Assembly: GCA_010093995.1 (NCBI GenBank)
Contig: ML992504.1
Location: 1,392,885 to 1,456,884, forward strand
DNA length: 64,000 nt
DNA from: Elsinoe ampelina
Taxonomy: Eukaryota
Direction: 5' to 3'
Part shown: positions 1,920 to 8,400 of the stretch, piece after piece
How the letters are laid out: every line of letters starts with the position of its first letter
How positions within the stretch are numbered: the first letter of the stretch is position 1
Program-made: the position numbers and the translations under genes
Notes under the pieces: model-generated
Databases searched by the model: none
What the model was told of the DNA's origin: nothing
Seen by the model: the letters and a program-made list of their open reading frames with translations, nothing else

Positions 1920-3850
1920 ATGGGTTCCACCGGACCACTCTATATCGTAAGAGGCCGATTTTACCCCGCCGCTGTCTAAATTGCTCTCTCTAATCGCGAC
2001 GACAGGGGTTTGACTTGTCAACACAACAATTGAAAGGTCACTATATCATCAAAGGATATTACATCGGTCCTCAAGCTTATTTCTTACAGCTCTCGTTGTC
2101 AACTCCAATCTCAAATTGCAACATGAAGCAAAAGTGTCCTTTGATGATGACCTGTCCAAATATGGCGTCAAGAAGGGTGTTCTCACCAATCCATTGGAGG
2201 GCGAGATCTTCGCACCAGTCGCTATGTGGCTAGATGCCATTGAGCTGGTCTTGTCTCGACTTCGTGATGCTGGCTGCGACTTCTCCCTGATCAAGGGTCT
2301 GTCCGGCGCCGGCATGCAGCACGGCACCGTCTTCTGGAGTCTGGAGGCAGAAAAGCTGTTAGCCAGCCTTGACCACACCAAGTCTTTAAAGGACCAGCTC
2401 GAGCCTAGCGATCAGGTAGATGCACGACACGGAGCATTCAGTCATCCACATAGTCCAAATTGGCAAGACGCAAGCACGCAGAAACAGTGCGATGCGTTTG
2501 ATGCCGAGCTCGGTAGTCCTCAAGTTCTGGCAAAGGAGACTGGCAGCAAAGCACATCACGTGAGTCGATTGACATCCCCCCTTTCGATACGACTAACGCA
2601 AGTTACAGAGATTCAGTGGACCGCAGATCATGCGGTGGCGAGAAAAGTATCCACATGAGTGGAAGAAGACTTCCCGCATCTCTCTCGTCTCGTCTTTCAT
2701 CACGTCCGTCTTTCTCGGTAAGATTGCGCCTATCGATATTGGCGATGTCTGCGGCATGAACTTGTGGCACATTGACCAAGGTAAATGGCACGAGAAATTG
2801 TTGCAACTTGCCGCGGGCGGCCAGGACTCGTCCGACCTAAAGACGAAACTCGGTCATGTCCCTGAAGACGGCGGTACCGACCTGGGTACCATCAGCCCTT
2901 ACTTCACAAAACGATTCGGCTTCCCCGACGACTGTGCCATTCGCCCCTGCACCGGCGACAACCCCGCCACCATCCTCGCGCTCCCCCTCCTCCCCTCGGA
3001 CGCCATGGTCTCTCTCGGCACCTCCACAACCTTCCTCATGAGTACCCCGATGTACAAACCCGACCCATCCTACCACTTCATGAACCACCCCACAACCCCC
3101 GGCCTCTACATGTTCATGCTCTGCTACAAGAACGGTGGCCTCGCCCGCGAACAAATCCGAGACAACCTACCCAGCAAAACCTGGGACGAATTCAACTCCA
3201 CCGCCCTCTCCACCCCACCCCTCGCCAGCACCTCATCCTCCCCCGCCCGTCTCGGCCTCTTCTTCCCCCGCCCCGAAATCGTCCCCAACGTCCGCGCCGG
3301 CCAATGGCGCTATGAATACGACTCGGCCTCCGACAACCTGTCCCCCGTGAGCTCCGACCCGGTGGAGTCCGACGCCCGCGTCATCGTCGAGAGCCAAATG
3401 CTCTCCCTCCGCCTGCGCAGCCAGGGCCTCGTCCACCCGCAGAAAGACAAGGACGGGAACACCCTCCCCGCCCAGCCTCGACGTGTCTACCTCGTCGGCG
3501 GCGCGAGCTCGAACCTGGCCATCGCGAGGATCGCGGGGGACGTACTCGGTGGTGCGGAGGGCGTGTTTAAGCTCGACATCGGCGGGAATGCGTGTGCGTT
3601 GGGTGCGGCGTACAAGGCGGTGTGGGGGTGTGAGAGGAGGCAGGGGCAGAGTTTTGAGGATTTTATCGGGGGGAGGTGGGATGAGGATGAGTTTGTTGTG
3701 AGGATCACGGATGGGTACAGGAAGGGAGTGTTTGAGAGGTATGGTGAGGCGCTGAAGGGGTTTGAGAGGATGGAGGCGGAGGTTTTGAAGCAGGCGGGGA
3801 ATGAGAGGGTGGAGTTGACGGGTGGGGTGGTGCATCATCCTGCTTCTTGA
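1920..3850 (+). CDS. XKS1: D-xylulose kinase (FGGY family)
   Basis: Exons 1920-1946 (MGSTGPLYI), 2006-2036 ([10 protein letters not shown]), 2090-2559 and 2609-3850. Motifs [59 protein letters not shown]. Confidence 0.95.
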
Positions 3851-4298
3851 GGGGAGGAGCACTTGGTCTTGTTTGTGGAGGAGCAGGAGACGAGACGCTG
3901 TATTCAAATTGCACACTTACCCTGAGTGCATACCAGGTGATTGAGTCGCAGCAATACATCAATCAACAACCCTCTCGACCTGTCAATCATTTGAAGCAAG
4001 AACTTGACGACTTCAAACCTCACTTTTGCTCTCGTCCAAAGAAAGATCCACTCACATGAAACAGATGTATAGAGTAGACTATCCGTATGTGACATGCGCA
4101 CACGACTTTGCTGACTCAAAAGCTGGTCTCCCGTGCACGACATAGACCCGATAACGAAGCCCCACACGCGCTGTCTACACACACATGCATTTGCTACAAT
4201 TTGCTATATGGCAAAAAGCTGATGGAGAGAATCTAATACATTACCACAACTTAATGAAGTCGTCCTTACTTGCATTTGTAGAAAGCTTCGAGCGGCCG

Positions 4299-4306
4299 AA
4301 AAAAAA
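4299..4306 (-). terminator. RNA polymerase III oligo-dT terminator of the tRNA-Arg gene
   Basis: T8 run on the minus strand, 15 nt after the discriminator base (4322). Confidence 0.8.
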
Positions 4307-4346
4307 TTGTGGTTCCGTCCATGATCGTACCAGGGGTCGAACCTGG

Positions 4347-4396
4347 CTGTGGCCGGGTTAGTTTTGATTTTAGCCATGTGTAGAAGTATCACTAAC
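4347..4396 (-). other. Spliceosomal-type intron 3 in tRNA-Arg (variable loop/T-stem junction, 48/49), 50 nt
   Basis: GTTAGT...AAAACTAACCCGGCCACAG: donor, CTAAC branch point, CAG acceptor. Confidence 0.88.
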
Positions 4397-4407
4397 AATC
4401 TCTTGAT

Positions 4408-4444
4408 GAAATTTTGCCGTTCCCAACTGGAGAACTGGGCTCAA
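4408..4444 (-). other. Canonical (endonuclease-type) tRNA intron at 37/38, 37 nt
   Basis: TTGAGCCCAGTTCTCCAGTTGGGAACGGCAAAATTTC sits one nt 3' of the ACG anticodon and has no GT-AG ends. Removing it restores a 7-nt anticodon loop. Confidence 0.85.
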
Positions 4445-4452
4445 TCGTAGTC

Positions 4453-4500
4453 CTGAGCCGATTAGGTGTGTCCAATTGGACCTGGGTCGAATATGCTTAC
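4453..4500 (-). other. Spliceosomal-type intron 2 in tRNA-Arg (anticodon stem, 29/30), 48 nt
   Basis: GTAAGC...ACACCTAATCGGCTCAG: donor, CTAAT branch point, CAG acceptor. Confidence 0.88.
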
Positions 4501-4511
4501 AAGCGCCTTGC

Positions 4512-4562
4512 CTGAGAACGTATTAGACCAGGAACTCGGCTGGGAAGCGAGAATCCACTCAC
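4512..4562 (-). other. Spliceosomal-type intron 1 in tRNA-Arg (D-loop, between G18 and G19), 51 nt
   Basis: GTGAGT...GGTCTAATACGTTCTCAG: donor, CTAAT branch point, CAG acceptor. Confidence 0.88.
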
Positions 4563-4600
4563 CATTGGGCCATACGACCTCAATTGATGCTCTAGCCAAA

Positions 4601-4620
4601 AGTTTTAAAATATATATTCC
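4601..4620 (-). promoter_or_regulatory. TATA-like AT-rich tract upstream of the tRNA gene
   Basis: GGAATATATATTTTAAAACT lies about 22-41 nt upstream of the mature 5' end, where TFIIIB/TBP usually binds. Confidence 0.55.
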
Positions 4621-5446
4621 AGTAATTGCACAGTCGTGGCAGCTACACGTGACTGAGCGGCCCATACGCAACAATGAGCATGAATAGTGGTACCTGCGAT
4701 CATTGCATGCACGCTACAGCGTGCTGAGAGGCGTCCTAGACCGTATCACGAGGTTCTTGGCTTGATTTGTCGATGTTCCAGGAAATTTCCTACTTGCCAC
4801 AGATCATCGTGTTTGGTCTCATTTGCTCGCTCTATGGCAAGCACAAAGACACATTCCACACAGTCCATTTTGCGTGCCACGAACAGCGGCATCGCTCAAC
4901 CAGCCTGGTATTTTCTCGGTATCGAGGTCATGCTCCAGAGGGGCTTAGCAGTCTCCGAGTAGTCTCTAGCGGACCATAGTGGCGTATTGATGAAGTCAAG
5001 AGCGTCGCGAACCAGCCCGTCTCATCCTTCACGACATGGCGGTGGTAGGCAGAGACTCCAGCAACCTACGTCGGCAGAGGTTCTGGCTAGGGAGCAATCG
5101 AAAGTGGCATTGGCTGCTATCACGCAGAACGATCGGTGTATACAACGGTGAAGGCCCCCTGATTGTCGTTGTCGCCTATCGCTGAGTCATCGCTTGGTGG
5201 CGGTGAGAACAAAGAAACGCACCCTGTACAATGCGATAGGGCATTAGACGGGCTCAGATGCTAATCACCACGATAGGAACAGGAACTAGGATGGAGCCAA
5301 GTGCTTCGTATATACAATGAGCAGACATGTCCCAATATGTACATCCCTACCAGCATCCATGAAAAGCTCGAAGTGATCGCTGATGATGACCACCTCAACG
5401 CCCTACCTATTGCCAACACTACCAGAACCTGATACCACTACTTCCT

Positions 5447-8400
5447 TCACCTCTTCCCAACGTTACCACTAGCATGCCTCAAATGCCTCGGCACCATCGG
5501 CTCCGCCGTCCTCACCTTACTCTGCAACCCCTCCAACCCCGTCCTCCTCTCACCCCAATCACTCTTCGCCGGCTCATCCACACTCCTATTATCCAAACTC
5601 CTCCTCCCACCTGCCACATCCTGCTCAACCTGCTCCGACCGAGAATCCAGATCAAAACCCCTCTGCCCAGTCCGTTTGGCACCCCTACCACTCAACCCAA
5701 CCTGCTCCCCATCCCCTCGTCGAGACTGGTCCGCCTCCGGACTCCCCCTCGAATACAGCGGCGAGTCCCTCTCCCTCAACGGACTCCTCGGCGGCACCTG
5801 CACCTCCTCCTCCGGCAACAGCGCCCAAGGCTGATCCCTCGGGCTCTGCGGCGTCCTCTCCGCCCTCGGCGGGACGTACGCCGATCCCGTATCTCTCCTC
5901 GGCCGCCCCGCCTCCGCAAGAGGACTACTACTCCTCGCACTCACCTTGCTCACCCTCCTCTGCGTCGGCGCTCGTCCCGCCGGACTATCCACACTACGCA
6001 TGTCGAAACTCCCCCTCAAATCAGCAGGGCTCGACTGCCCCACGCTCGCCGCCTTCTCCGTCTCGAGGCGTTCGCTCTCCTCCTCGATCTTGTGCATGCG
6101 CTGCTCGAAGCTATCCGGCGCGATGCCGAGGTCGCCGCTGAGAGCGTCCTTGTCGCCGAGCAGGCGGGAGATGGCCTCGTCGTAGCTGGCGTTGAGAGTG
6201 GCGAATTCAGCGGCGTGGTTGAGTGCGATTTGGGACTTGCGTTTGGCGAGGGCGTGGTGATGTTGGGCTTCGAGGCGGGATTCGGCTCGTCGGAGTTCTT
6301 CCTTTTTGGTCTTGAGGTCGTGGAGGGCGTGGGGTCTGGCGGGCTTGCGCTCGGCGGTGTCGGGTGGGGTGGGGAGGTCGCCGTATTGGGCTTTGAGCTC
6401 TTCTTTCTCCTTTCGCAGGCGCTCGGCTTCCTGGCCTTCAGCGGCCTCTTCGAGGATCTTCCTTTCCGACACGAGATCGTCGAACTTCTGCTTGTACTCC
6501 TTGGAAAGAGTGTCCTTTGCCATCTGGAGGTCGCCGACATGCTGAGCAATCTTGGCTGCGAAGGCTGCTTCGTTCTGGCTGATGACTTTGCCGAGCTCTG
6601 ACAGTTCTGATTGAGCGTGCTGGAGATACTCCTCGAAGGATCTTGCCGAGATGGGTCTATCGCTGGTGTCCAAATCTCGGGAGGTATTTACTGTCTTACC
6701 ATCAGGAGTCACAGGTCGACCATTGATTGCTCGAACAGTCCGATTGGTATCTGGCGATGGCAGTGCCGAGCCTTGGAAGGAAGCGGCCTGCGCACGGCTC
6801 TCCTTGAGCGCCCTCCTCAGCTTTCTGATTGTATGTTGCAGCTCATGCGTGTCTTCGTGCTTGGTCCGATCCAGCTCCACTGTCGTTTCGGTAAGCTTAG
6901 CAGACATGTTCTCCACATGCTTGGCCAACTCGTCCCTCTCACTGACTAGTCTCAGTACCTTCTCAGCCTCCTTCGCTCGCTCCTCCTCAGCACTTGCCAC
7001 TCTTCTCTCTACCTCAGCCAACCTCGCGACAGCATCATCGCCCTCGGTTCTTCCTTTCTGTAGCCCTTCCAGTTCTCCTACCAGTCGACTTTTCTCTTCG
7101 ATGGCTTTACTCTCCCCCTCCAAGGCTCTCGCTACTGCTCTTTTCAACTCGGCGACCGTACCATCTCTCTCTCTTGCGACCTGGCTCATCGACTCTCGAA
7201 GCTCTTGCTCAGCTGACCGAAGTATGTTAACTCGCTCGGTCTCCTCTGCCGCTCGTCGTCTTGCCTCGTCGAGCTGTGCCTTCAGCTCAGCTTGCTTCCT
7301 CTCGTGACTTTCTTCATCTTGCTTACGTTGTTCTCGCATGGAGTTGATCTCGCGGACCAGTCGTTCCGAGTCATCAGCTAGCTTCTGATGATCTGCGAGT
7401 GTCGAGCTAAGCTTCTCTTGCACAACGGACTGTTCCTTTGCCAGCTTGGATCGGAGATTCTCGAGCTCTGCCCGATGAGCATTATCGGCCTCCTTAGCAG
7501 ATTGCGTGAAATGCGTCTCCACTTCGGAGACCTTGCGACTGTGACTCTTTTCCTTCTCCTCCATTTGCGCATACAGCTTAGACTCTAAGGCTTGCATGGC
7601 TTGAACCTGAGCATTGCATTCTTGCTCGAGGGCTTCGGTGTGAGATTTGCGAGTCTCCTCAAGTTCATGAGTCAGCGAATCCCTGGTCTTTTGGAGCTCT
7701 TGCTGGTGACTGGCCGTGAGGTCATTGATCTTCTCCTCGTTGATCTTGCGGAGACGTTGCACTTCCCCAAAATGCTCCTCTTTAGCTTGTCTAATGGCAG
7801 TCTGCAACTTCTCCGCATGCGACTCGATGAGACTCTTTCGAATGGTACTGGCCTCACCCTTCAACTTCTCCAGATCGGCTTGGTGGCTATTTTTGGCAGC
7901 AGTGAGGTCGATCTGGTGCTTCTCGCGCAGTCGCGCCAGGTCCTTCTGATGCTGTTGTAGCAGCTGTGCAGAAGAGGTGTCGGACGTTTCTCTGGCCTTC
8001 TGAAGACGCTCGTTGTAAGATCGCTCGGCTTCCTCGAGCTCATCTTTGTGCTTGGCAGTCAGACCCTTAAGCTCGGATTCATGGGACTCCTTGATCCTGC
8101 TGTGCTCATTCTCAGCAACATTCAGCTTATCCTGGAGCGCCGTCAGAGCCCTTTGATGCTCGTCCTTCAGAGACTTGAGATCAGTTCCGTGCTGGTCCTC
8201 TCTATTGCGAGCTTCCTCCTCACGCTCTTGGATCGTTGCTTTGAGCGCTCCGATCTCCTTGTCGTGTCTCTCTTCCAGCTCTTCCAACCTAGCTTCATGT
8301 CCGGACCGAGTAGTGATGAGCTGGTGATTGGCGCTCTCGATTTCAGACCTTGTAATGCCCAGCTCCTTCGCATGTGACGCGTGGACATCCTGAAGATGTT

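Follow-up and report, generated by a model that had tools for sequence, protein, structure and literature searches.

A nuclear tRNA-Arg(ACG) gene of Elsinoe ampelina interrupted by three GT-AG introns and one canonical tRNA intron

A stretch of 64,000 nucleotides (nt) of the Elsinoe ampelina genome (NCBI GenBank assembly GCA_010093995.1, contig ML992504.1, positions 1,392,885 to 1,456,884 of the forward strand) was analysed; this whole stretch is called the window, and all coordinates below are positions within it. On its minus strand, at 4579-4322, the window carries a real nuclear transfer RNA (tRNA) gene, a tRNA-Arg(ACG), that is divided into five exons. The interruptions are of two kinds: three are spliceosomal introns of the U2-type GT-AG class, and one is a canonical tRNA intron. 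The exons join into a complete cloverleaf, the arrangement does not recur elsewhere in the window under controls for chance, and an assembled RNA-like contig lacks two of the GT-AG introns exactly while it still contains the tRNA intron.

According to the textbook, nuclear tRNA introns are spliced by proteins and lie at position 37/38. Introns of the messenger RNA (mRNA) type are known in small-RNA genes, namely those of small nuclear RNAs (snRNAs) and of U3, and there they are explained by proximity to the spliceosome. Our full-text literature searches found no report of a tRNA gene with a spliceosomal intron; the only match to the phrase concerned 'non-spliceosomal tRNA introns'. Two pattern scans of metagenomes, one for the end of exon 1, a gap and exon 2, the other for the 25-nt exon 5, returned 0 matches each.

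Five exons join into a complete tRNA-Arg(ACG)

When the five exons were joined by their coordinates, ARAGORN recognised a 72-nt tRNA-Arg(acg) with perfect acceptor (7 base pairs, bp), anticodon (5 bp) and T (5 bp) stems and a D stem of 3 bp. When only the three GT-AG introns were removed and the program was run with its intron option, it again returned tRNA-Arg(acg), now with a 37-nt intron at 37/38, given as i(37,37). The call depends on the removal of intron 1. Reading the joined sequence, we found the invariant nucleotides of the cloverleaf U8, A14, G18-G19, U33, T54-T55-C56, A58 and C61 in place; furthermore, A15 is able to pair with T48, and 13:22 is a C-A mismatch. In the unspliced window neither ARAGORN, also with the intron option, nor Rfam reports a tRNA, which is expected because the gene is split in this way. 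The parts of the gene are as follows.

4579-4563, minus strand: exon 1, 17 nt; tRNA positions 1-18, comprising the 5' strand of the acceptor stem, U8, the 5' strand of the D stem and the D loop to G18
4562-4512, minus strand: intron 1, 51 nt, GTGAGT..CTAAT..CAG; in the D loop, between G18 and G19
4511-4501, minus strand: exon 2, 11 nt; tRNA positions 19-29
4500-4453, minus strand: intron 2, 48 nt, GTAAGC..CTAAT..CAG; in the anticodon stem, between 29 and 30
4452-4445, minus strand: exon 3, 8 nt; tRNA positions 30-37, including the anticodon ACG
4444-4408, minus strand: intron 3, 37 nt, TTGAGC..AATTTC, not GT-AG; at the canonical 37/38 site, of the tRNA-endonuclease type
4407-4397, minus strand: exon 4, 11 nt; tRNA positions 38-48, comprising the 3' strand of the anticodon stem and the variable loop AGATT
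4396-4347, minus strand: intron 4, 50 nt, GTTAGT..CTAAC..CAG; at 48/49, the junction of variable loop and T stem
4346-4322, minus strand: exon 5, 25 nt; tRNA positions 49-73, comprising the T arm, the 3' strand of the acceptor stem and the discriminator A

Three interruptions carry spliceosomal signals and one does not

Introns 1, 2 and 4, which are 48-51 nt long, share a common build of fungal style: a GTRAGY-type donor, a CTAAT or CTAAC sequence 9-11 nt from the intron end and a CAG acceptor. Eleven other strong intron-like candidates in the window, chosen by a strict motif list, measure 49-65 nt; this list served as the comparison set, a screen based on the joining of reading frames having been too noisy in GC-rich DNA. 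Intron 3 fails the test for spliceosomal motifs. An earlier reading made from the sequence alone (the sequence-only reading) had spoken of four introns; three of these are indeed GT-AG introns, but the third in order is of the tRNA type at 37/38.

We also considered that all four interruptions might be ectopic bulge-helix-bulge (BHB) introns of the kind known from Cyanidioschyzon merolae and Archaea, and that their GT-AG ends are coincidental. Nuclear tRNA genes of C. merolae do contain ectopic and multiple introns (PMC3728597, PMC3978253), and the disrupted genes described there, permuted genes among them, resemble the present one in several respects: as many as three introns occupy non-canonical positions, the A and B boxes are interrupted, and the layout also has a TATA-like sequence and a T stretch (PMC3978253). 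However, the introns described for C. merolae are BHB introns of 11-69 bp that are cut by the tRNA endonuclease, whereas here the GTRAGY-type donor, the CTAAY sequence 9-11 nt from the end and the CAG acceptor recur in each of introns 1, 2 and 4, and BHB pairing is no better than chance. In a simple pairing scan, which is not a full BHB model, the best registers of introns 1, 2 and 4 formed 7, 6 and 9 of 12 pairs, compared to a random median of 7, and about 10% of random positions reached at least 9. Moreover, an RNA-like contig (see below) lacks introns 2 and 4 yet contains the intron at the canonical position, which suggests two machineries. That the four interruptions are all BHB introns is thus extremely improbable in our view.

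The split gene is not a chance parse

From 75 strict candidate introns per strand we generated 226 spliced variants of the window, and on these ARAGORN made six tRNA calls, all six of them at the split tRNA locus. A second control was built on loose GT..YAG candidates (2931 and 2834 per strand), from which 8433 random triple-splice variants were drawn. None of the 8373 variants located elsewhere in the window gave a tRNA call by ARAGORN, compared to 10 of the 60 that touched the tRNA locus. These controls show that the split tRNA gene does not result from a chance parse of the sequence.

Introns 2 and 4 are exactly absent from an RNA-like contig

The contigs of four sequencing runs (X3, X4, X5 and X7, whose status as RNA was guessed and is not recorded) were compared with positions 3000-6500. 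Run X3 lacks cover over 4222-4620, X4 and X7 over the whole tRNA locus and X5 over the upstream gene; these gaps were given no weight for or against an independent promoter. One contig of run X5, 201 nt long and without mismatches, spans 4214-4346 and 4397-4452 and ends in 12 loose letters. The joint 4346|4397 skips 50 nt (CT..AC on the plus strand) with no positional ambiguity, and corresponds to the exact excision of intron 4. The 12 loose letters have their sole match in the window at 4501-4512 and follow directly after 4452, so that intron 2 is exactly excised as well. Intron 3, in contrast, is retained, 4397-4452 being unbroken. The contig stops one base beyond exon 2, and this base is a G in both the spliced and the unspliced form, which makes the contig uninformative on intron 1; such a stop is also where an assembly graph would halt if the two forms diverge. 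Despite the guessed status of the run, a joint at GT-AG borders is itself like that of complementary DNA. Beyond the last exon the contig continues as a trailer:

4321-4214, minus strand: 3' trailer in the spliced X5 contig, whose end lies within a T5 run (4217-4213)

Thus, at introns 2 and 4 a real molecule uses the exon borders that tRNA structure by itself had predicted, and these two introns leave before intron 3 and before 3' trimming. We infer that the spliceosome is the excising agent, that intron 1 is spliced, and that a functional tRNA is the product. The sequence-only reading had proposed a precursor of about 280 nt, ended at a run of eight Ts (T8) behind the gene and spliced by the spliceosome. 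Its splicing agrees with the exact excision of introns 2 and 4, but not with intron 3, which is not spliceosomal and was retained; the proposed end was not borne out, as the only precursor seen passes T8 to at least 4214.

A further possibility is that the locus is a redundant or decaying copy, with ordinary tRNA-Arg(ACG) genes elsewhere, which is transcribed and spliced and yields little or no functional tRNA. The low depth of the RNA evidence, and the fact that it consists of a precursor-like contig only, would suit such a copy. However, the five exons still fold into a clean cloverleaf with its invariant nucleotides, and the donors, branch sites and acceptors of the three introns, a TATA tract upstream and the T8 run are all intact, whereas in a neutral copy one would expect part of them to be gone. 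We therefore regard a copy of this kind as improbable.

Signals outside the gene stand out in the window

The locus combines internal promoter elements with A/T-rich elements on both sides of the tRNA:

4618-4603, minus strand: TATA-like A/T tract at -39 to -24, with TATATA at 4616-4611 (-37 to -32 relative to tRNA position 1)
4601-4598, minus strand: T4 run after the TATA-like tract, read in the sequence
4572-4562, minus strand: A box TGGCCCAATGG as read in the DNA, its last G being the first base of intron 1
4343-4333, minus strand: B box GGTTCGACCCC, in exon 5
4306-4299, minus strand: T8 run, a terminator-type signal for RNA polymerase III (Pol III), 15 nt after the discriminator base (4322)

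Every motif that the sequence-only reading had named was found on the minus strand where that reading had put it. G18 (4563) is the last base of exon 1, the place of G19 is occupied by the G with which intron 1 begins (4562), and in this way the A box lies in the DNA where it had been placed. The B box in the last exon is likewise intact, and GGTTCGACCCC is the sole strict match to GGTTCGANNCC on either strand of the window. From the end of the A box to the start of the B box we measured 218 nt, where about 220 nt had been given. The T8 run behind the gene and the TATA-like tract before it were both found as described and are highly non-random. T8 is the only run of at least eight Ts in the 64 kilobases (kb) on both strands (128 kb of strand), in which there are two runs of at least seven and ten of at least six; only 0.05% of minus-strand positions have a run of at least eight Ts starting no more than 30 nt downstream. 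The TATA-like tract is the longest of six pure A/T tracts of at least 10 nt in the window and holds, at -37, the sole TATAWAW of the minus strand, a motif that occurs 25-45 nt upstream of 0.03% of positions. The window has 54% G+C, and the six A/T tracts and ten runs of at least six Ts are counts for both strands together; this extreme scarcity of homopolymer and A/T tracts makes the pair on either side of the tRNA conspicuous. Both extragenic signals, TATA tract and T8, exceed by far what chance would produce.

The sequence-only reading had also drawn attention to the lack of T runs within the introns. It is correct that none exceeds three Ts (the longest runs in introns 1-4 are 2, 2, 3 and 2), but because 62% of composition-preserving shuffles are also free of runs of at least four Ts, the scarcity of T runs carries zero statistical weight. 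It had further called for a comparison with mRNA introns genome-wide; in the comparison set from the window, 9 of the 11 strong candidates likewise contain no run longer than three Ts, and the depletion of T runs is not above chance.

The precedent it had named for a distant B box combined with a TATA box, SNR6 of Saccharomyces cerevisiae, holds. In that gene an upstream TATA box, with Ts just downstream of it, is described as combined with an A block and a B block that are about 200 bp apart, compared to 30-90 bp in tRNA genes (PMC5855946). The split tRNA gene is similar in its spacing of 218 bp, in its TATA tract at about -35 and in the T4 run that follows. It differs from SNR6, whose B block lies beyond the terminator, in that the last exon contains the B box and introns account for the added distance.

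Pol III or RNA polymerase II

In our judgement the chances are even that the locus still works chiefly as a Pol III unit, Pol III with leaky termination being the route that yields the tRNA. T8 is unique among the signals in that it should matter to Pol III alone, and the TATA tract lies at the distance found in TATA-assisted Pol III genes. An upstream TATA box is described as important for the tRNA genes of some fungi, and transcription can be independent of TFIIIC (PMC3978253).

Several observations weigh against a Pol III unit. The A-B spacing of 218 bp is outside the natural range of tRNA genes, 30-90 bp, and close to the roughly 200 bp of SNR6. Survival of the A and B boxes, being inherent in any tRNA sequence, is weak evidence on the polymerase; by our own calculation, if three introns fell randomly on the 71 junctions, both boxes would be spared in about 37% of cases. 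The TATA tract could serve RNA polymerase II (Pol II), or 3'-end formation of the upstream gene. Furthermore, the only type of RNA molecule seen, that of the X5 contig, crosses T8 and extends at least a further 85 nt to 4214. A T8 should be a strong Pol III terminator, runs of more than six Us being classed as such in the yeast work cited here (PMC4937561). The X5 evidence consists of one contig at a depth of 2.5, and contigs show neither strand nor true ends.

A Pol II host transcript is the alternative to which we give most room, although we consider it rather unlikely. Such a transcript would start at the TATA tract or continue from the upstream gene on the same strand, would be spliced co-transcriptionally like an mRNA or a long non-coding RNA (lncRNA), and would extend well past T8; RNase P and RNase Z would then free the tRNA from it, and T8 would have only a secondary role or be left over from the past. 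A Pol II unit is the simplest setting for three mRNA-type introns. The spliced X5 contig passes T8 to 4214, a separate 160-nt piece from run X3 covers 4221-4062, and the mRNA contig of the upstream gene ends just 42 nt before the tRNA. tRNA-like ends are cut from Pol II lncRNAs, an example being the mascRNA of MALAT1. A precedent for a nuclear tRNA derived from a Pol II transcript is tRNA-Sec of Trypanosoma brucei, which in the account given there is made by Pol II and for which that account describes no spliceosomal cis-introns within the tRNA (PMC2943599).

However, the unique T8 at the exact site of a Pol III terminator (0.05% of positions) would have no reason to persist under Pol II in a gene old enough to have acquired three introns. 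In addition, no loose A run is listed at the end of the X5 contig, and the same contig is to be expected from Pol III read-through. Read-through of T8 in this contig is compatible with Pol III, whose transcription in yeast commonly continues for 50-200 nt beyond the terminator (PMC4937561). Short, correctly terminated pre-tRNAs would tend to be lost from standard libraries, which are biased to longer forms. Because libraries favour longer molecules and Pol III read-through is common, the X5 contig cannot decide between the polymerases.

A proposed order of maturation

Pol III transcription would fit a scheme in which the tRNA matures through two serial splicing systems, the spliceosome acting three times on a primary transcript, about 280 nt long and made by Pol III, and tRNA processing following; we put forward this full scheme tentatively, with a likelihood slightly short of even. 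The TATA tract at about -35 would help to position TFIIIB, and TFIIIC would bridge the intact A and B boxes across 218 bp, as on yeast SNR6. Transcription would start a few nt upstream of 4579, going by general tRNA biology, and most transcripts would end at T8. The 3'-extended spliced RNA would then represent those Pol III transcripts that read through T8, or else a minor product of Pol II from the tRNA locus.

Introns 1, 2 and 4 would be excised first from the primary transcript by the spliceosome, as in the U6 RNA of fission yeast. The GT-AG introns would have to go first because the cloverleaf cannot form while they are present. The 109-nt product would then fold its acceptor, D and T arms. 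As is usual in tRNA biology, its ends would be processed by RNase P and RNase Z, and intron 3 would be taken out by tRNA endonuclease and ligase. CCA would be added by the same general rules, and A34 would probably be deaminated to inosine, tRNA-Arg-ACG being described as a substrate of eukaryotic ADAT (PMC8007984).

Relation to known systems

The single U6 gene of Schizosaccharomyces pombe is described as containing an intron which the spliceosome excises, and the split tRNA gene resembles this and other fungal U6 genes as a Pol III-type gene of a small structured non-coding RNA with a spliceosomal intron (PMC5855946). It is unlike them in that its product is a tRNA and not a component of the spliceosome, and in that three introns lie within 72 nt, together with a tRNA-type intron. 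Furthermore, fungal U6 is made by Pol III, whereas for the split tRNA we only infer this polymerase. The origin of U6 introns is usually explained by reverse splicing into an RNA in the catalytic centre, an explanation that is not obviously applicable here because a tRNA is no spliceosome component. Small-RNA genes with multiple introns are reportedly present in Rhodotorula hasegawae. Fungal U3 genes are described as commonly carrying normal spliceosomal introns (PMC5832005).

If the proposed maturation is correct, it would make this tRNA the first with a known requirement for the spliceosome, and in this lineage the spliceosome would routinely handle uncapped Pol III transcripts besides U6. 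mRNA-type introns would be able to colonise tRNA genes, and the phenomenon would extend to the translation machinery. The locus would then be a natural test case for the action of the spliceosome on a Pol III transcript or else for a tRNA made by Pol II. It also bears on the question of intron gain, that is, on reverse splicing into abundant RNAs versus other routes. Since ARAGORN and Rfam miss genes of this kind, fungal isoacceptors that appear to be missing may be hidden in the same way.

Neighbouring genes and minor observations

The upstream gene on the same strand is an uninterrupted open reading frame of 2084 amino acids (11701-5447, minus strand), rich in E, K, L and Q and coiled-coil-like; its C-terminal 1000 residues (8449-5450) gave no Pfam match. 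A 7237-nt RNA-like contig of run X3 covers this gene and reaches 4621, 42 nt before the tRNA. With the stop codon at 5449-5447, the implied 3' untranslated region is about 826 nt long (5446-4621) and ends at the A/T tract. The TATATA element might serve both 3'-end formation of the coiled-coil gene and initiation of the tRNA unit.

The other neighbour is a convergent FGGY kinase gene, in which FGGY_C was confirmed by Pfam and whose mRNA contigs stop at 3939-3978 in four runs. Protein Atlas returned nothing but clusters of FGGY kinases, most of them bacterial. The 160-nt contig of run X3 at 4221-4062, which is of low depth, overlaps the end of the X5 contig by 8 nt and lies beyond the ends of the kinase contigs; it may stem from the distal 3' region of the tRNA transcript or from a kinase transcript with a long 3' end.

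Introner-like or repeat-derived introns were considered and rejected: searches with blastn-short found no similarity among the four introns and, within the window, no match to them elsewhere longer than 14 nt. A self-match by blastn revealed a 12-nt perfect palindrome at positions 20-31 of intron 2 (4470-4481 in the window), which is probably of no significance. Intron 2 also holds TTCGACCC (4491-4484, minus strand), an 8-mer identical to the B-box core and T loop of exon 5 that is without the two leading Gs of the B box. It is situated about 70 nt downstream of the A box, which is the normal A-B distance in tRNA genes, and could be there by chance, with a probability that we roughly estimate at a few per cent. 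It recalls a B-box match that is said to occur within the U6 intron of Schizosaccharomyces.

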